The translations under genes and the position numbers were made by a program. DNA of 64,000 nt from Candidatus Pacearchaeota archaeon (GTDB taxonomy: Archaea; Nanobdellota; Nanobdellia; Pacearchaeales; GW2011-AR1): assembly GCA_038740375.1 (NCBI GenBank), contig JAVYLW010000003.1, positions 4,545 through 68,544 on the forward strand. The letters run 5' to 3'. Shown one piece after another: positions 999 through 17,543 of the stretch. The notes beneath the pieces are model-generated. The model was not told the DNA's origin. It searched no databases and was given only the letters and a program-made list of their open reading frames with translations. Position 1 is the first letter of the stretch. Every line of letters starts with the position of its first letter.

Positions 999-1679
999 AT
1001 GAAAAATAAATTAATTTTTTATATAATAATTATTGCATTTATTTTTTTAGTAGTTTTACCTAAATTTGTTTTTGCAGGTGTTGGTTTGAAATGGGATCAG
1101 CAATCTGCACTTATTGATGAAGGAAAAAAAACTTGTTTATCATATTCTGTATATAATCCTTGGCCTACAGATACAAATATTAAAGTTGATTTATCTGAAA
1201 ATTTAAAGTCTATTTTGATAATGCAAGAGTCTGAAACAAAATTTGTTCCTGCATATACTTCAAGTAATGAGTCAATACCTATAAAGTTTTGTTTTAAAGC
1301 TCCGAAAGTATATAAAAAAGATTGTTTAATTGGAAATTTATTATGTGAACAAAAATGTAACGAAGAGATGAAAGAGTATAATGGAGAAGTTATTGCAAGT
1401 TCAGTTCCTTTTGCAGCTCCTTCAGGAGGTTCTGGAGGTTCTGCAACAAGAATGGTTGTCGGAGCTCCACTTTCTATTAGAATAAAATGTATACCTAGCT
1501 CAAGAGACTTTACTTTAATCTATATATTAATAGCTGTAATATCTGTTTTAGTTATAGCATTATTACTTTATAAAAAATATAGAAAACCATCATTAGAAAG
1601 AGATAAAGAAAAACTAAAAGCATTAAAAGAAAAAATTAGAAAAGAAATTTTAAAGGACAAATCTAAAAAGAAAAGATAA
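999..1679 (+). CDS. Surface protein with signal peptide and C-terminal TM anchor plus Lys-rich tail
   Basis: The track ORF starts at 975, but the signal peptide MKNKLIFYIIIIAFIFLVVLPKFVFA starts at ATG 999, directly after the upstream stop. The C-terminal TM is LIYILIAVISVLVIALLLY, followed by a KKYRKPS...KSKKKR tail. Confidence 0.7.
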   Translation: MKNKLIFYIIIIAFIFLVVLPKFVFAGVGLKWDQQSALIDEGKKTCLSYSVYNPWPTDTNIKVDLSENLKSILIMQESETKFVPAYTSSNESIPIKFCFKAPKVYKKDCLIGNLLCEQKCNEEMKEYNGEVIASSVPFAAPSGGSGGSATRMVVGAPLSIRIKCIPSSRDFTLIYILIAVISVLVIALLLYKKYRKPSLERDKEKLKALKEKIRKEILKDKSKKKR

Positions 1680-2108
1680 AATTTATTGTATAAAATATAA
1701 AAATTATAATTAATTTTAAATAATAATCTTTTTTAAATATAGATCTTTAAAGGTATTAATTTAATTATTAGAATTTTTTAATTTATGATAATAGATTTAT
1801 GCTGATATGTTTATATGATGAATTACATAATATCTAGTTTTATATTTTTTAAAACTTTTTGTATTTTGATTTCGTTGCGATTGCGCAGGATTTATTATTT
1901 TATCGTCTAATATTTTAATATTTTAGACAAAACAGTAAAAGTTCTTATAATTTTTTTTATCGTCGATAATTCTCTTTCTTATCCTTCATTGATGCAAGAG
2001 AACCTGTATTTTAATAAAATGTTAATAATTTTAAATCTAAATGCTATTGTTATATAATTTAGAACAATTTTTAGAAAGTTATTAATAATCTAAATTTTTA
2101 ATTCTTTT

Positions 2109-3617
2109 ATGAACAGAATAATAAAAAAAGAGTGTGGTGAAATTAACAATTTATGTTTCATATTTTTAATAGTTTTTGCTGGAATTTGTTTTACTTTTTT
2201 TAGCTTGAGACTATCTGGTTTTGCAATAGAACAAGTTTTTTCTACGAATTCTTCAATAATTGTTGATCCTGGAATAAGGGTTATTTATAATACTTTTAGT
2301 GGTTCAACTACTGATTTTTTAAGAATGAGCGATATTCAACTTTCTAATATTTCAAATATGACTTTGGAGAATATTTTTGGAAAAATTGTTTTTAGAGAAA
2401 ATATAAATTTGACAAAAGATTCTGTAAATAATGTAATTAATCTTGATGATAATGTTAAAATATATCATAGAGGAATTACAATAAATACCTTAAGTCTTTC
2501 TAGTATGTTAAAACAATCAAGAATTTATTTTAAAGGAATAAGTTTAAATTCACCTTTTATTTATGTTGATGATGATCCTTGTTATAATTGCAGTATTTTA
2601 AGTTATTCAAATGCTGTTTTAGTAGTAGATGCCCCTGAATTTTCGAAGATAGAAATTTTTGAAACTCCTTTTTGTGGTGATTTTGTTTGTCAAGCTTTTA
2701 GAGGAGAGACTTGTGTTACTTGTCCGCAGGATTGTGGGTATTGTCCACCTCCTTCAGGTCCTCCTTCAGGAGGAGGTGTTGCAGTGCCTGGAGTAGAAGG
2801 TGGAGGTGCTGGAAGTTCTGGAGAAGGTATTTCAGCTGGAGGACAGATATTAGGTGTAACTCAAGAACAAGCAAAAGAAAGTTTTTTTAATATAAATCCT
2901 AATTTTATAAAAATTACTTTAGTTCAAGGTGAAGCTAAAAAAGAAACTTTAAAAATTACAAATACAGGAAAAAATAATATAGATATCATCCTAAATTCAG
3001 AAATTTTCGGAAAATTTGTAAATGTATCTGAAATTTCTTTTAATATAAAAGCTGGAAAAACAAAAGAAATTGAATTGTATTTTTATGCAGAAGAAAATGT
3101 AAAACCTGATATTTATATTGAAAAAATTACTATAGAAAGTGCTGATAAATCTAAGAATTTTGTGGTTATACTTGAAATAAAAGAGAAAAAACCTTTATTT
3201 GATATTAAAGTGTGGTTAAATAAAAAATCAGTATATCCTAAAGAAAAAATAACTGCTACAAACGAGATAAAAAATTTAGGAGAATTAAAAAATATAGATG
3301 TTGAGCTTTATTATGGGATTAAAAATTTTAATAATGATATATTATATTATAGGCAAGAAAGTTTAGCAATTCAAGATAAATTAAATGTTATTAGAGAAAT
3401 TGAAATTCCTGAATACCTAAGACCTGGAAATTATATATTTTATTCAAAAGTTACTTATGGCAAAATTAGTGCTTATGCTTCAGAACAATTAAATATCAAA
3501 GAAATTGAAGAACCTTTAATTAAAATTAATACTTTTACATCTGGAATAATAATATCTATAATTTTAATAATTATTATAATAATCACTCTGGTAAAATTAA
3601 AGAGAAGAAGATTTTAA
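2109..3617 (+). CDS. Anchored surface protein with a Cys-knot module, Pro/Gly linker and beta-sandwich-like repeats
   Basis: 502 aa with an N-terminal TM. Module FCGDFVCQAFRGETCVTCPQDCGYC is followed by PPPSGPPSGGG. Segments like LKITNTGKNNIDIILNS are typical of adhesion-type beta-sandwich domains. C-terminal TM plus KLKRRRF. Confidence 0.75.
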   Translation: MNRIIKKECGEINNLCFIFLIVFAGICFTFFSLRLSGFAIEQVFSTNSSIIVDPGIRVIYNTFSGSTTDFLRMSDIQLSNISNMTLENIFGKIVFRENINLTKDSVNNVINLDDNVKIYHRGITINTLSLSSMLKQSRIYFKGISLNSPFIYVDDDPCYNCSILSYSNAVLVVDAPEFSKIEIFETPFCGDFVCQAFRGETCVTCPQDCGYCPPPSGPPSGGGVAVPGVEGGGAGSSGEGISAGGQILGVTQEQAKESFFNINPNFIKITLVQGEAKKETLKITNTGKNNIDIILNSEIFGKFVNVSEISFNIKAGKTKEIELYFYAEENVKPDIYIEKITIESADKSKNFVVILEIKEKKPLFDIKVWLNKKSVYPKEKITATNEIKNLGELKNIDVELYYGIKNFNNDILYYRQESLAIQDKLNVIREIEIPEYLRPGNYIFYSKVTYGKISAYASEQLNIKEIEEPLIKINTFTSGIIISIILIIIIIITLVKLKRRRF

Positions 3618-3625
3618 TTTTGCAA

Positions 3626-4102
3626 ATGAGAAAGAAAATTTTTTTTATTCTATTAATATTCTTTTTTATTATTTTAATGTTAATTTTTATTTTATGGATA
3701 TTTTATAATCTTTATTTAAATGAAAAAAATAATAAAAATAATTTTTCCAAGGTATGTATTAAAAATAAATGTATAAATGTTGAGATAGCAAATACAACAG
3801 AATCTTTGGAAAGAGGTCTTATGTATAGAGATAGTTTATGTGAAAATTGTGGTATGTTATTTGTTTTTAATAAAGAAGGAATATATTATTTTTGGATGAA
3901 AAATACAAAAATACCTTTAGATATAATTTGGATAAATAATAAAAATAAGATTGTTGAAATAATTACTGCAGAACCTTGTGTTGAAGAAATTTGCAGAACC
4001 TATTTTTCAAATAATTCTGCAATTTATGTTTTGGAAGTAAATTCTGGATTTGCAAAAAGAAACTCTATAAAAATAGGAGATTATGTATATATAAAAATTT
4101 AA
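3626..4102 (+). CDS. DUF192 (COG1430) family protein with N-terminal membrane anchor
   Basis: ERGLMYR...CGMLFVF...FWMKNTKIPLDIIWI matches the DUF192 signature as I recall it. The track start (TTG 3620) is replaced by ATG 3626. Confidence 0.7.
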   Translation: MRKKIFFILLIFFFIILMLIFILWIFYNLYLNEKNNKNNFSKVCIKNKCINVEIANTTESLERGLMYRDSLCENCGMLFVFNKEGIYYFWMKNTKIPLDIIWINNKNKIVEIITAEPCVEEICRTYFSNNSAIYVLEVNSGFAKRNSIKIGDYVYIKI

Positions 4103-4129
4103 TATTATAACATTTTACTATTTTTCAGA

Positions 4130-4586
4130 TTATTTTAACAAATAATCTTTATTTTTCTTTTTTGATAATACTTCTAGATAATTTGTTGATTCAATGTAAT
4201 CTTTAGAAAAAATTATAGGTATATTATCTTTTAATAAAATAGATATTATTTTTCCATATAAAATATTTTTATTAATATTAACTTTGATATCTGAAAATTT
4301 TCCTTCTATTAAGAGTATCTTTTTATCTACTTTTTTTAAATTATTTATTTGATTATCTAGTCTTTTTGATGTGAGTGAATTAACAAAATCATTTATTTCT
4401 TTTCTTTCTATTATAACATTATTTACTATATAGTCTCCTATTTTTAAGTATTTTAAACAAATGTCGATATTTCTTTTTTTTAATTCTGCAGGAATTAAAC
4501 AATTTTTTTCATGAATATCTATAATAATTTTATTTTTTTTTATTTTTTATTCGTTTTTTTGTTTTTTTAAAAATATTATGAAACAT
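4130..4586 (-). pseudogene. ERCC4/XPF-type nuclease domain gene (Hef nuclease half), frame broken at a 9-nt homopolymer; no start codon in the nuclease frame
   Basis: The minus-strand frame is open over 4130-4546 and encodes ...IIIDIHEKN...LKIGDYIVNNVIIERKEINDFVNSLTSKRLDNQ (ERCC4 GDY...ERK...D..S motifs) but contains no Met. ATG at 4586 opens MFHNIFKKTKKRIKNKKK and stops at 4532-4530. Removing one T from the T9 run at 4533-4541 joins the two frames. Confidence 0.7.
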
Positions 4587-4598
4587 TATTAATACTGT

Positions 4599-6239
4599 TT
4601 ATTTTTTAAAAATATCAAATAACTTTTTTTGTTTATTGTTTTTTTCTTTTATTAAATCTTCTTCTTCAATTTTTTTTTCTTCTGAATATTTTTCATAATT
4701 ATTTTCATCTATTTTTATTTTGTTTTCTAATTCTTGTTTTATAGAATGAATTGCGCGATGCATTTTTCTTTCTTTTCCAATTGATGCATAATAATAAGCT
4801 TGGTCTAATGTATCTATTGTCATTAAAATTATGAGTTTTCCTTTCATTAATCTTGCTGTTCTTCCTGCTCTTTGTATTCTTCTTATAGCGCTTGGTATTG
4901 GTTCATAAAATATAACTGAGTTTACTTCTGGAATATCAAGCCCTTCTTCTCCTATACTAGTTGCTACAATAACATTTATTATTCCATTTTTAAAATCTTC
5001 AATTATTTTTTGTTGTTCTTTTTGAGATAGTCCTGTTTTTCTTTTTTTTGATTGTCCTATGAAAATACTTGCCTTTATATTAGGTATCTTTTTTATTTCA
5101 TTTGTTATTTTTAATGCAGTTTCTCTGTATTGTGTAAAAATAATTGATTTATTCTTAGGATTTTCTAATATATCTTTTTCTATTATTTTTATAAGCTCAT
5201 TAATTTTAGGATGTTCTATATTTTTTGAAACAAGCTCATTTAGAATAATATATGCTTTGTTAAATTCTTGATTTTTTGTTAATTGTTTTACTGCTTTTGA
5301 TTTGTTTTTATTTGCTTGTTCATATAAATCTTTTATATAACATAATGAAGAATGAAGGGTTTGGGTTTCTATTAATTCAATAAGATGAGATATTTTTATT
5401 GCTTGAGAACATGCGCTTGCTCCTGATAAAATGTTGAAATGTTTGTTACCTAATGAAGCTTGTTCTATAAGACTTGATTGTAGTTTTAATAAATTTATTT
5501 TTGTTGGAGGTTGAAATAGAAGTTTTCTGTTTTTTAGTTCTTCAATTTTTTTTTCAAAAATTTTTTTTATTATTTCAACAACTTTTTTTATATCTTCAGT
5601 AAGTTCTAACTTAACAACACTAAACTCCAATTCTTGCAAGTATTCTTTTACATCAGGGCTTTCTCTTGTTCTTAATTCTATTGCTTCAATATTTAAACTT
5701 TTAGCAATCTGTTCTATTGTTTTTTTATCTGTTCCAGGGCTTGCAGTCATTCCTATAATTCTTAGATTTTTTGCTTGTTCTTTATATTTTTCAGCTATAT
5801 AAGTATAAGCATAATTTTTTAAACAACGATGACATTCATCTTCAATTAATAAAGATACATCTTCTAAAGTGTATAGATTATTTTTTAGGTCATTTTGAAT
5901 ACATTGAGGAGTGGAAAATATTATGTCTGACTTTTCCCAAAGTTCTTTTCTTTTTTTTGCAATTGTCTTTCCTGTAAACAGAGTCATTTCAGCAAATAGT
6001 TCTGGAAGATGTTTTGTAAAATATTTTAAATGTTGTTCTGCTAAAGGTCTTGTTGGAGCTAAGAATAATACTTTTGTTTTTGGGTACTTTTTTTGTCTTT
6101 GTATAGTGAGCATTAATGCTATTAAAGTTTTACCAATACCTGTAGGCAATATTATTAAACAATTTTTTTCTACGCAAGTATTATATATATCTTCTTGATA
6201 TTTTCGAGGTTTTATTTTTTTGAGAATTTCTTGAAACAT
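4599..6239 (-). CDS. hef: Hef/FANCM-like superfamily 2 helicase (helicase half only)
   Basis: 546 aa. Walker A LPTGIGKT, DEAH-type box IEDECHR, motif VI QRAGRTAR, and an inserted helical domain between the two RecA lobes as in archaeal Hef. Ends in a Lys/Glu-rich linker-like tail. Confidence 0.85.
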   Translation of the reverse strand: MFQEILKKIKPRKYQEDIYNTCVEKNCLIILPTGIGKTLIALMLTIQRQKKYPKTKVLFLAPTRPLAEQHLKYFTKHLPELFAEMTLFTGKTIAKKRKELWEKSDIIFSTPQCIQNDLKNNLYTLEDVSLLIEDECHRCLKNYAYTYIAEKYKEQAKNLRIIGMTASPGTDKKTIEQIAKSLNIEAIELRTRESPDVKEYLQELEFSVVKLELTEDIKKVVEIIKKIFEKKIEELKNRKLLFQPPTKINLLKLQSSLIEQASLGNKHFNILSGASACSQAIKISHLIELIETQTLHSSLCYIKDLYEQANKNKSKAVKQLTKNQEFNKAYIILNELVSKNIEHPKINELIKIIEKDILENPKNKSIIFTQYRETALKITNEIKKIPNIKASIFIGQSKKRKTGLSQKEQQKIIEDFKNGIINVIVATSIGEEGLDIPEVNSVIFYEPIPSAIRRIQRAGRTARLMKGKLIILMTIDTLDQAYYYASIGKERKMHRAIHSIKQELENKIKIDENNYEKYSEEKKIEEEDLIKEKNNKQKKLFDIFKK

Positions 6240-6337: not shown

Positions 6338-7027
6338 TTATAAAAAAACTATAAAAGATATTGCTAAGGTTATTAATGTTATTATTAATAAGAGGATCCA
6401 ATTAATCAGACTTCCAAAAAATATTTTAGTTCCGTCTAATCCTCCGAATGGAATCAAGTTCCACAAAACATAGTATAAAGGAAATCTTGCTAACTCTTTG
6501 AAATTTAATAAAATTCCGATTATTGAAAGCCCTATAAGTGCATATCCTGACCAAGCTATTACAAATGCGGGATCGTATTCATTTATTTCTGATTTTCTTA
6601 TTCTTCCTCTATGTTTTTGAATTCTTCTTTCAGGATAGTTTTTATAATTAAATTGCAAGAATGTTAAAGGTTTAATATAACTGAGAGAAAATAAAGTAAT
6701 AAAAAAAGGAAAAACTATTCCAATTGGAAAAGGTTTTTTAAAATGAGATCTTGAATAATAACTCCATCTATAAATTTTCCAAGTTTCAAATTCTATTCTT
6801 ATATCATAGTAATAAGATGCTATTTTTTTTACAGTTATACTTGTAAAGATGATAAGTATTGGAACTAAAAGAATGAATGGATTTTTTAAATTTATTATTA
6901 ATTTTTCATTTTTGTCAATATCTAATGTAATTATAAATTCAAAAATAATAATCATTAATATTATCCAAACTATCTCTTTATTTGTAAAATATATAAATCT
7001 ATTTGTACCTATTTTTTTTCTATTCAT
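6338..7027 (-). CDS. Polytopic membrane protein, site-2-protease (M50)-like C-terminus but no HExxH
   Basis: 229 aa with several TM segments. NLIPFGGLDGTKIF resembles the M50 NxxPxxxLDG motif. No HExxH is present anywhere in the ORF. Confidence 0.45.
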   Translation of the reverse strand: MNRKKIGTNRFIYFTNKEIVWIILMIIIFEFIITLDIDKNEKLIINLKNPFILLVPILIIFTSITVKKIASYYYDIRIEFETWKIYRWSYYSRSHFKKPFPIGIVFPFFITLFSLSYIKPLTFLQFNYKNYPERRIQKHRGRIRKSEINEYDPAFVIAWSGYALIGLSIIGILLNFKELARFPLYYVLWNLIPFGGLDGTKIFFGSLINWILLLIITLITLAISFIVFL

Positions 7028-14711: not shown

Positions 14712-14888
14712 ATTTTTATTTTGATGTGCAATTTTTTTATATTTTCTTCTTCTAAATCTTTTTAAGAGAAAAATTTAAATATTATATAATGATTATTTTT
14801 TTATTAAAATGAAAAAAAAGGTTAAAAACATTTTTTTTTAAAATCGATTCTAATAATTACGTTTTTAATTTCTTTATTAATCTCATTT

Positions 14889-17543
14889 TTGTTTGCTGTT
14901 TTTTTACAAAATTCAAATAAAAATAATTTTTTAAGTAGTAATGAAGAGCTAAATGATGAAGAGATATATTCAGTAAAACCTTTAGGAAGTAATATTTTAA
15001 AAAGGTATATAACATTAAATATTTCTGATCAAACTTATTCTTATTCTACAAATAATGGTGTCATTAGATGTTCTTCTTCAAAAAATGCAAAGATTTTTAA
15101 TTTATCAAACAAATATCCTAATTATCAACAATCCGGAGTTTCTTATTTTAATTTATCTAATATAGTTAGTAATTCTGTAAGTAAAGCAGAGGTTTGTTAT
15201 GCAATATCTTACAGCGATAATATTCCTTATAATATATGGATATTAAATGAAACTTATTTGAAATGTCCTAATATTCCTATTTTTAATTCAAGATTGAAAT
15301 ATGCAATTTCTTATAAAAAAATTGTAAATACATCTAAGAATAACTACAATTGTTTTGATATAACAGATTATGTAAATCTTCAACTTTCCAAAGGAAATAA
15401 AGATATTTATTTTTCCATTATAGGAAATAGTACATTAGAAAATAAAATTATATCTTTTTATGGAAAAAATGATCTTTATCCTGCCTATATCAATATAACT
15501 ATTTTAGAAAATACTAGTATAAGTTCTACAGGATCTAATTGTCAGGACAGCGACGTTAGTTCAGACTATCCAGATGGAAAAAATGTTTATGTAAAAGGAT
15601 TCGTAAAGGAGATGAAAAGTGGTCGTCAAGCACAAGATTATTGTACTGGTTATAAAAATCAATTAATGGAATATTATTGTTTGCCTAATGGTAATTTTAC
15701 TGGTTATCTATATACTTGTCAGTATACTTGTAATGATGGGTATTGTCCAGAATCGTGTAAACCTAAAAATTGTTCAGAGCTTGGAAAAGAATGTGGAAAT
15801 TGGGATAATGGTTGTGGAGTTTTGATATATTGCGGAGGTTGTAAAGATTCACTAGTATGTAATTCAGAAGGAAAATGTTCAGTTTTTATTTCTAATTGTA
15901 CTGATTCTGATGTATTTAGTAAATATCCAGACGGAAATAATCCTTATTTAAAAGGTACTACTAAAGGGAATAATAAAACTTTTGTAGACTATTGTGGTTT
16001 TGACGGGAAACTTTATGAATTTTATTGCGATGTTTCAGGTAATATTAGGAGCGTATCTTATTATTGCCCTAATTTTGTAAATTGTTTAAATGGTAGATGT
16101 ATAAAAGAAAAATGTCAGAAAAATATAGATTGTCTTTATAATTCATATATTAAAAAACCACTTTGTGATATTAATAATGGAAAGTGCGTTGAATGTTTGA
16201 ATGTTAGTGATTGTGATGATGGTAAGTTTTGCATTAATAATTCATGTGAAATTTTTAATGCCGGAGTTTTAGTTTCAACTAAAAAAGATAAATATTTAGT
16301 CAATGAAAAAATTGAGTTAAGTGATATTTATGATTCAAAAAAAATAAGTAACTCTAAACTGTATGAGTATGCATATTTTTCTTCTTTAGATAATGATAAT
16401 GTTGCATGGATAGGAATGTATTTGTTTGGTACTGGAAAGATTCATGTTTATAATTTAAAAAATAATAAAGAAAAAAATGTTAATATTTCTTCTTCACCAA
16501 ATCTTAAGGGTATTGGTATTTCTGGTAATTATCTAGTTTATACTGATTTTAGAAAGGGTAAGAATAGTATTTTTTTATATGATCTTTTAAAGGATAAAGA
16601 AGAGATGATTGCACCAAATGCAGTGATTCCTCGTAATATCGACGAATCCAAAATAGACTTTATTTCTATTGATAAGAATATAGTTATTTGGTTAGACGAG
16701 AGAAATGAAGAAAAAAATAAATTAGTAAATAGATTATCCGATATATACGTTTACAATATAGATAGTAAAAAAGAAAAAAGAATTACTAAAACTTCAAATA
16801 TTATAAATAATCCTTTTATAAGAGATAATAAAATTGTTTGGGAAGATAAGAGAAATGGAAATTTTGATATCTATATGTATGATTTATCTAATAATATAGA
16901 GAAAAGAATAACAAGCAGTTCTGGTTTTAGTACTCCTACTATTTATGGAAATAAAATAGTCTGGAGTAATTATTCTGAAATATTTTTATTCGATTTAACT
17001 AATAACAGCCAAAGAAAAATAGCTGATGGAATACGTCCAATAATTTATAAAGATTACATTGTATATTCAAGGAATGGGCTTATTTATCTATACGATTTAA
17101 CAAAAAATAAAGAGTATCAATTAACAGTTTTTAGTTTGATAAATAATTTACTTACATTAAAATTTTATAATAATTCAATAATATGGTCTGATAATAGAGA
17201 TTCTATATATGATACTTTTAATCAAAATATAATTCTTTATGATATCAATACCAAGATGCTAAGTAAAGAATCAATTAAGTCTGAATTAATAAATATGAAT
17301 AATTTTAATATAAAAGTAAAGTTATTGTTAAAATTAGAAAAAAATATTAATAATCAATGGGTGGATCAAAGAAAAGTTTTTGAAGATACATTATCTTTAA
17401 ATAGAAAAAGTCAATTAGATATATCGAAATATTGGAATTCTCAAAATATAACTGTTTCGTCTTTCGGATTATATAGAGTTAAGGCTGAACTGTATATTGA
17501 TGGAAAAAAACAAAAAGAATACAGTTATACTTTTACTGTTTAA
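14889..17543 (+). CDS. Cys-rich / beta-propeller-repeat surface protein; the real start is probably ATG 14809, separated by a homopolymer frameshift
   Basis: 884 aa from TTG 14889. Two about 70-aa Cys modules (C[QT]DSD..YPDG.N.Y.KG...YC...EYYC...C.NG.C). Repeats of the type KIVWEDKRNGNFDIYMYDLSNN are typical of TolB-like surface beta-propellers. The frame is open from 14826 and encodes a TM-like segment. Confidence 0.8.
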   Translation: MFAVFLQNSNKNNFLSSNEELNDEEIYSVKPLGSNILKRYITLNISDQTYSYSTNNGVIRCSSSKNAKIFNLSNKYPNYQQSGVSYFNLSNIVSNSVSKAEVCYAISYSDNIPYNIWILNETYLKCPNIPIFNSRLKYAISYKKIVNTSKNNYNCFDITDYVNLQLSKGNKDIYFSIIGNSTLENKIISFYGKNDLYPAYINITILENTSISSTGSNCQDSDVSSDYPDGKNVYVKGFVKEMKSGRQAQDYCTGYKNQLMEYYCLPNGNFTGYLYTCQYTCNDGYCPESCKPKNCSELGKECGNWDNGCGVLIYCGGCKDSLVCNSEGKCSVFISNCTDSDVFSKYPDGNNPYLKGTTKGNNKTFVDYCGFDGKLYEFYCDVSGNIRSVSYYCPNFVNCLNGRCIKEKCQKNIDCLYNSYIKKPLCDINNGKCVECLNVSDCDDGKFCINNSCEIFNAGVLVSTKKDKYLVNEKIELSDIYDSKKISNSKLYEYAYFSSLDNDNVAWIGMYLFGTGKIHVYNLKNNKEKNVNISSSPNLKGIGISGNYLVYTDFRKGKNSIFLYDLLKDKEEMIAPNAVIPRNIDESKIDFISIDKNIVIWLDERNEEKNKLVNRLSDIYVYNIDSKKEKRITKTSNIINNPFIRDNKIVWEDKRNGNFDIYMYDLSNNIEKRITSSSGFSTPTIYGNKIVWSNYSEIFLFDLTNNSQRKIADGIRPIIYKDYIVYSRNGLIYLYDLTKNKEYQLTVFSLINNLLTLKFYNNSIIWSDNRDSIYDTFNQNIILYDINTKMLSKESIKSELINMNNFNIKVKLLLKLEKNINNQWVDQRKVFEDTLSLNRKSQLDISKYWNSQNITVSSFGLYRVKAELYIDGKKQKEYSYTFTV

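Follow-up and report, generated by a model that had tools for sequence, protein, structure and literature searches.

A stretch of 64,000 nucleotides from Candidatus Pacearchaeota archaeon (assembly GCA_038740375.1, contig JAVYLW010000003.1, positions 4,545 to 68,544), hereafter the window, carries the two parts of Hef as separate reading frames. In euryarchaea, Hef joins a helicase and an ERCC4-type nuclease in one polypeptide. In the window, the ERCC4 nuclease frame has no start codon and is severed from its own 5′ end at a run of nine A-nucleotides. The locus thus raises the question of whether Hef has been split here, and of what has become of the nuclease. We put the chances at about even that the nuclease gene has really and very recently been inactivated and is being lost by reductive evolution, in a lineage in which helicase and nuclease are ordinarily encoded by two genes.

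The helicase gene (4599-6239, minus strand) is intact and stand-alone. In the list of open reading frames (ORFs) it encodes 546 amino acids plus stop, the stop codon being a TAA at 4599-4601. The product is a Hef-type superfamily 2 (SF2) helicase, which a profile search matched to positions 14-542 of the 781 positions of the NCBIfam Hef model NF010337 (E 3.6e-169). It has the Pfam domains DEAD, RNA_helicase_helical (the inserted helical domain) and Helicase_C, and the motifs PTGIGKT, DECH, TASPG and QRAGRTAR. A spacer of 12 nucleotides (4587-4598) separates its stop codon from an ATG (4586-4584) that opens an ORF of only 18 codons (MFHNIFKKTKKRIKNKKK*; 4530-4586, minus strand). This ORF ends in its own frame at a TAA (4532-4530) directly after the A9 homopolymer (4533-4541; T9 on the plus strand), which marks the junction to a frame shifted by +1. 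In that frame, the ERCC4 nuclease (4130-4546, minus strand) is open over 138 codons from 4546 to 4133, followed by a stop at 4132-4130. It contains neither ATG nor GTG, and its sole TTG, at codon 136, is irrelevant. The original prediction had described this layout, namely a helicase ORF ending at 4599, a Met-free nuclease frame over 4546-4130, and an 18-codon ORF closing just past a T9 run, and we recovered the same coordinates and frames.

The start-less frame corresponds to a complete nuclease domain. It matches the Pfam ERCC4 model over profile positions 1-139 of 140 (E 1.3e-21) and the Hef model NF010337 over positions 569-700, and its metal-binding and ERK motifs (DIHE...GDY...ERKEIND) align with those of orthologs. 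The best match in the PDB is the nuclease domain of Pyrococcus furiosus Hef (1J22, residues 6-134 of 143), and identity to the closest intact orthologs amounts to 59-66%. This frame is also the only copy of the nuclease in the assembly, which comprises 0.97 Mb in 15 contigs, has a GC content of 24% and is about 85% complete. By the names of the closest protein homologs, it belongs among Pacearchaeota/Nanoarchaeota (DPANN).

Comparison with orthologs identifies the 18-codon ORF as the ancestral 5′ end of the nuclease gene. The orthologs of the same genus and the three closest protein homologs begin with M-[FLP]-x-[ND]-I-F (for example MFHNIF, MLHNIF or MLYDIF), continue through a Lys-rich linker and reach II[IA]DIHEKN, all in a single frame. 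In the window, a change of frame separates the leader peptide (MFHNIF) from KIIIDIHEKN. When one A is removed (A8), leader and ERCC4 domain form one protein of about 151 amino acids, in agreement with the earlier proposal that a one-base deletion would restore a nuclease of about 150. Its N-terminus, MFHNIFKKTKKRIKNKKNKIIIDIHEKN, has the same length as that of the closest ortholog, P0003 (MLHNIFSKNKKNKIKNKSKIIIDIHEKN), and the two proteins are colinear residue for residue. Because the orthologs share the leader in one frame and the A8 version is colinear with them, the ATG at 4586 is the ancestral start, and the A9 run is one base too long.

We searched for the nuclease in 41 related genomes of the same genus and the same order. 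In 38 of the 41 it is a separate gene with an open frame of 209-244 codons, and in one related genome the gene carries a single in-frame TAA. All twenty loci that we translated (including L002-L020) encode both ERCC4 and HhH2, as do the protein matches that align over their full length. The position of the helicase gene varies: it lies directly upstream of the nuclease, 0.6-1.6 kb upstream, or elsewhere. Since the best 120 of the 5,539 helicase homologs are all 512-563 amino acids long, these homologs are stand-alone proteins as well. A two-gene Hef, with a helicase and an XPF-type nuclease, is the rule across the order, and so neither local nor new. The original prediction of a split Hef was thus right in that helicase and nuclease are encoded by separate genes, but not in treating this as a peculiarity of the locus. 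Two genomes (G006 and G018) have neither helicase nor nuclease, but they are incomplete and hence uninformative.

What sets the window apart is the state of its nuclease gene. The A9 frameshift occurs in none of the 38 relatives and in none of about 50 protein homologs, all of which read in frame at this place. The scenario in which orthologs carry the same T9 together with an alternative start, which had been raised at the outset as a possible refutation, therefore finds no example. As no ortholog examined shares the shift, the A9 run is not a conserved recoding site, and a programmed event is disfavoured.

A second lesion is found at the other end of the gene, where orthologs extend about 70 codons beyond the end of the window's nuclease frame, through a linker and the (HhH)2 domain. 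The absence of this domain, noted in the original prediction, was upheld by every search: the nuclease frame has no match past position 700 of the Hef profile and no HHH match in Pfam, and tblastn with three ortholog HhH2 tails detected no remnant in the whole 0.97-Mb assembly. In L022, a related locus, a nuclease of 218 amino acids with HhH2 ends 17 nucleotides before a convergent gene of the DUF192 family. The same convergent gene (3620-4102, plus strand) serves as a syntenic anchor in the window and in L023, another related locus, whose copy is 57% identical to that of the window. Only 27 nucleotides (4103-4129) separate it from the stop codon of the window's nuclease frame. Since the full gene in L022 and the frame in the window end near the same DUF192 gene, the 3′ part of the window's nuclease was deleted, and the comparison with L022 locates the deletion at this spacer. 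The last residues of the frame, KDYLLK, align ambiguously, either with the native C-terminal tail, which would imply an in-frame internal deletion, or with the linker.

The 3′ flank of the nuclease differs in yet another way on the contig of P0002 (JGI sample 3300075153), where the DUF192 gene lies further downstream of the nuclease and four small genes stand between the two: a MazE/PemK toxin-antitoxin pair, a DUF4258 gene and one unnamed gene. Because of these four extra genes, the flank looks like a hot spot of insertion and deletion, which could explain the loss of the HhH2-coding end in the window. The only candidate for a natural ortholog without HhH2 was P0012 (165 amino acids), which we rejected as a MEGAHIT loop artefact: the end of its contig (L059, ENA k141_1606800) duplicates an internal 38-mer, positions 601-638 being an exact repeat of 335-372. 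No natural HhH2-less ortholog was thus found.

The closest relatives of the helicase show how the nuclease varies within the clade. The nearest of them, with 75% identity, is encoded on the Logan contig L023, which shares with the window both the helicase tail and, upstream, an M50-like gene. In a helicase tree calculated with IQ-TREE, L023 is sister to the window (support 98/97), within a clade that also contains L021 and L022 (100/99). The nuclease is retained in L021 for at least its 5′ 114 codons. In L023, the DUF192 gene follows 19 nucleotides after the helicase stop codon, and there is no trace of a nuclease at the syntenic site of this contig of only 4 kb. Since L023 lacks the nuclease at this place, its loss at this locus is tolerated in the clade. 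The clade presents a series of states: intact in L022, truncated and frameshifted in the window, and absent in L023.

A genus-wide search of 49 GTDB genomes detected no helicase of more than 73% identity, and none of the 25 loci from a protein-seeded metagenome scan was closer than L023 over the full gene; two metagenome matches at 77-80% (L044 and L046) come from N-terminal fragments that lie where their contigs end. An exact-protein look-up of the helicase returned no record, and an exact DNA pattern with a variable A-run found no match in metagenome contigs. Look-up, pattern, metagenome and genus-wide searches also revealed no second assembly of the same species.

In the reading that we favour, the starting point would be the two-gene Hef module typical of the lineage, with a stand-alone helicase followed by a short XPF-type nuclease. 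One lesion would be the expansion of A8 to A9 (+1) in a homopolymer of Lys codons, 17 codons past the ancestral ATG, which would cut the start codon off from the catalytic domain. The other, independent lesion would be the deletion of about 70 codons, which took away the linker together with the (HhH)2 domain for dimerisation and DNA binding. The outcome would be an organism with a helicase-only Hef, like Thermoplasma. The A9 run would then be the true genomic sequence, and no functional nuclease would be made. Sequence comparison shows both lesions relative to the orthologs, the absence of the gene from the syntenic site in L023, and the intact helicase. Among the three possibilities named in the original prediction (sequencing or assembly error, pseudogenisation, slippage), the odds move towards a real and recent decay because the loss of HhH2 is a second lesion, because L023 lacks the gene, and because no ortholog has the shift.

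Several observations weigh against this reading, and most of them concern constraint on the nuclease domain. In a relative-rate count with eight outgroups, the numbers of window-unique versus partner-unique changes were 16/17, 15/13 and 9/6, the partners being the window's three closest intact orthologs. When the window, L021 and L022 are compared pair by pair, their helicases are 67-70% identical and their nucleases 59-66%, and the window is no outlier. Of 54 columns conserved to at least 85% in 50 homologs, 14 deviate in the window and 10 and 7 in its clade-mates; nearly all of the window's deviations are conservative or shared by the clade, and only about two are both window-specific and non-conservative. 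No catalytic motif has been lost, and the MFHNIF leader is intact. In addition, 7-10% of single substitutions in the nuclease frame would create a stop codon in this AT-rich genome, so that the 138-codon frame, being still open, limits neutral drift to less than about 7-10% nucleotide divergence. Both lesions would have to be very young. The terminal branch of the window in the helicase tree measures 0.26 substitutions per site; as any inactivation would be young relative to this branch, the deletion in L023 and the lesions in the window were probably independent events. The organism of L023 might furthermore carry a nuclease elsewhere, given the short contig. Finally, a second homopolymer break lies only 10 kb away, as described below. 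Judging from the pattern of substitutions, the inactivation would be very recent, artefactual, or bypassed.

That it is artefactual is possible, though we hold it to be doubtful. The A9 run would in this case be a consensus or assembly miscall, or a length variant, be it the minority or the majority form, in the sampled population, and the real A8 gene would encode a working, HhH2-less nuclease of 151 amino acids that acts with the helicase and PCNA; the deletion of HhH2 would then be older and tolerated. This explanation accounts for a nuclease domain that evolves at the rate of intact orthologs, with its catalytic residues and N-terminal motif in place and 138 codons open despite the frequency of stop-creating substitutions, as well as for the exact colinearity of the A8 version with P0003. 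Moreover, the protein that remains has the same extent as the Hef nuclease domain 1J22, which has been crystallised and folds independently. On the other hand, no natural ortholog without HhH2 is available as a precedent, and the sister lineage L023 lacks the nuclease at this site. It also counts against a working nuclease of this kind that, as Nishino et al. reportedly found in 2003, the P. furiosus nuclease needs the dimer interfaces of both nuclease and HhH2 domains for efficient fork cleavage.

How probable a miscall is depends on how homopolymers fare in the rest of the assembly. The assembly contains 2,644 A/T runs of length 7, 950 of length 8 and 179 of length 9, but only 4 of length 10 and 1 of length 11. 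By gene calls that are crude, 943 A/T runs of at least 8 lie within genes, among them 136 sense A9 and 24 sense T9 runs. None of the 943 is associated with an internal frame break, and two A9 runs within the neighbouring helicase gene, 140 nucleotides and 1 kb away, are read in frame. Coding runs of 10 or more yielded one clear case, an A10 that occupies codons 4-8 of a gene near position 16150 of C8, and one further candidate at C8 511. This clean record elsewhere favours real mutations. Among the common homopolymers, however, nine-nucleotide runs are the longest and the most prone to error, and two breaks in about 160 coding runs of this length fit a miscall rate of about 1%.

The second of these breaks, which came from a scan for breaks near gene 5′ ends, is a T9 run at 14831-14839 (feature 14809-14891). 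An ATG at 14809 opens the short frame MKKKVKNIFF*, and the −1 frame continues with LKSILIITFLISLLISFLFAVFLQ into a Cys-rich surface protein whose gene, of 904 codons, is otherwise intact. A T10 run would join the n-region of a signal peptide to its h-region; no ortholog was found in 40 relatives to confirm this N-terminus. Both breaks are on the same contig, and neither lies beyond codon 18 of its gene; such clustering speaks slightly for a local consensus problem or a variable region. The two breaks require opposite corrections (−1 at the A9 run and +1 at the T9 run), however, which argues against a systematic bias in the assembly.

Other apparent breaks were set aside. Twelve candidate homopolymers at frame junctions proved to involve adjacent genes or antisense shadow frames. 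Three of the twelve, those with no ATG beside the run in the downstream frame, were inspected: two separate neighbouring genes (eS1 and NDK in one case, a gene followed by ATCase in the other), and the third resembles an antisense shadow. In the remaining nine, a start codon lies next to the run, and we took them to be neighbouring genes or short shadow frames. Antisense shadows also account for a T8 candidate on C4 and for a pair with an apparent in-frame stop on C5. Of the long start-less frames free of a shadowing gene, only two are credible as coding, the ERCC4 frame and a transposase fragment. The latter lies outside the window, on contig C1 (56190-56828, minus strand), and is a DDE-type-like frame of 212 codons with its first start at codon 103.

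The same homopolymer counts bear on whether the frameshift might be bypassed. A sharp drop in the number of runs with length has been tied to selection against slippage-prone tracts (Baranov et al. 2005, PMC1088944), and the cliff in this assembly, from 179 runs of length 9 to 5 of length 10 or more, looks like such a signature, with its threshold at 10. We think it unlikely, but worth weighing, that the A9 run is real and that the nuclease is nevertheless made, at a low or switchable level. This could happen by slippage of RNA polymerase on the A9 tract, yielding A8 or A11 mRNAs; by +1 sliding of the ribosome on AAA-AAA-AAA before the TAA; or by phase variation of tract length in the population, in which case the T9 run of the surface protein would be a second switch. 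The slippery A9 run is indeed located exactly at the frame junction, with a stop codon of the original frame right after it, and the gene is perfectly preserved in both its halves. Both breaks fall in the 18 codons at the start of their genes, a stretch that holds only 14-24% of coding runs, although this positional bias is weak (two cases, p ~0.04) and the breaks came from scans tuned to gene starts or to flanks of 60 codons or more. Surface proteins are, in addition, a classic class of phase-variable genes. Yet the genes of this genome tolerate 136 sense A9 runs, so slippage at nine nucleotides should be too rare to matter, which agrees with an avoidance threshold of 10; the frameshift is conserved in no ortholog, so there is no evolved recoding signal; and no stimulatory element was identified.

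There are precedents for such a bypass. Poly(A)-frameshifted genes of endosymbionts that are rescued by transcriptional slippage were reportedly described by Tamas et al. in 2008. Disrupted bacterial ORFs that can be restored at 9A or 9T tracts have been documented (PMC1088944), and the window resembles cases in which slippage during transcription rescues a gene frameshifted at a poly(A) tract (Baranov et al. 2005, PMC1088944) in its AT-rich, reduced genome, in a run of nine A-nucleotides restorable by ±1, and in the avoidance of long runs. It differs from them in an avoidance threshold of 10 rather than 9, in the large deletion, and in having a sister lineage without the gene. A more specific version, that the A9 run and the T9 run of the surface protein are genuine hypermutable or slippage-prone 5′ switches (contingency loci) and that a minimal HhH2-less XPF nuclease is still produced, strikes us as improbable. 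The nuclease could then be made from slipped transcripts at a low level, or in an ON subpopulation, and purifying selection on both halves of the gene despite the frameshift would follow.

Translation of the nuclease could also dispense with a frameshift altogether, if its frame were started at a near-cognate codon (ATA at 4543-4541 or ATT at 4528-4526), perhaps by termination and reinitiation after the 18-codon leader. The product would then begin at about the same place as those orthologs at the level of the order that have no leader and start with M-I-I-[AV]-D; in the window, K-I-I-I-D, with its ATT and ATA codons, stands at that place, and the stop codon of the leader ORF overlaps the region. 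Nevertheless, we give this explanation very little credence. The frame offers no ATG, GTG or TTG ahead of codon 136, the A-rich sequence upstream shows no purine motif resembling a Shine-Dalgarno site, and initiation at near-cognate codons is usually very inefficient. It would, furthermore, leave the intact ancestral leader peptide unexplained.

If the nuclease gene is truly in decay, as we favour, the helicase would be left to act alone, and its C-terminus is of interest in this respect. The gene ends with QKKLFDIFKK (4602-4631, minus strand, in translation), which matches the pattern Q-x-x-h-x-x-a-a of a PCNA-interacting protein (PIP) box with one aromatic residue and is a putative PIP box, a function that we infer from the match. 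In most relatives, the helicase ends with Q-[KE]-x-L-F*, and only the window and L023 have the longer tail. In Thermoplasma Hef, a C-terminal PIP box on the helicase has been shown by experiment to bind PCNA (Rohleder et al. 2016, PMC4838364). The extended tail may represent a secondary completion of the PIP box in a clade that is losing the nuclease. The DNA encoding DIFKK in this tail and that encoding NIFKK in the nuclease leader (4569-4586, minus strand), 30 nucleotides apart, are nearly identical (GATATTTTTAAAAAA and AATATTTTTAAAAAA). The ATG of the leader shares the helicase frame in the window, but as the relative frames of the two genes vary among relatives, we treat this as chance and set aside read-through from the helicase stop codon into the leader.

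The locus can be placed among known systems as follows. With euryarchaeal Hef (P. furiosus and T. kodakarensis; NF010337; PDB 1J22-1J25), it shares the matches to the helicase and nuclease profiles and the GDY...ERK...D motif. Euryarchaeal Hef is, however, one polypeptide, whereas the window has two genes, no HhH2, and a nuclease frame severed from its start, and each of its pieces has a summed score below the equivalog cutoff of 610 for NF010337. The two-gene Hef of DPANN archaea, which consists of an 'ERCC4-related helicase' and an ERCC4+HhH2 nuclease of about 220 amino acids, agrees with the window in gene order, leader motif, PIP-like C-terminus of the helicase and, as in L022, downstream neighbour; the A9 frameshift and the lack of ~70 codons at the 3′ end are confined to the window copy. 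The short XPF of crenarchaea (NF040956; PDB 2BGW/2BHN for Aeropyrum XPF) is likewise a stand-alone ERCC4 protein, and the window's nuclease matches its profile over positions 3-133 of 222 (E 2.7e-19), but with a score of 69.6 against a cutoff of 300 and without HhH2 or any region beyond; it is closer to the Hef-type nuclease.

A Hef that consists of the helicase alone and ends in a PIP box is known to be viable (PMC4838364), as in taHef of Thermoplasma acidophilum. If the window's nuclease is dead, its organism would be in the same state, and L023 seems to have that layout already. The window differs from Thermoplasma in retaining a nearly complete frame for the nuclease domain, and loss of the nuclease here would be independent of that in Thermoplasma. 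The genome would then be a snapshot of the shedding of the nuclease half, converging on the helicase-only Hef of Thermoplasma. Should the truncated protein be active instead, ERCC4 could work without HhH2 alongside the Hef helicase and PCNA, and if the nine-nucleotide tracts are variable in length, they would give a first indication that DPANN archaea use homopolymers for phase variation. In its present form, the result is modest and mostly ordinary, a point of annotation and evolution: 'split Hef' is no anomaly in Pacearchaeota-like DPANN archaea, for which the two-gene state is normal.

Two further observations concern the helicase gene and its surroundings. In L042 (Ga0247842_10000545, locus 1081-4128), the helicase gene is split after residue 136 by about 1.5 kb (locus 1488-3001), which could be an intein or a mobile insertion, and no nuclease is found within 3 kb downstream. 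Upstream of the helicase in the window, a gene at 6338-7027 (minus strand) encodes a membrane protein of 229 amino acids with an NLIPFGGLDG motif and without HExxH; it is syntenic and conserved in L023 and L021, and thus stably adjoins the Hef helicase in this clade.

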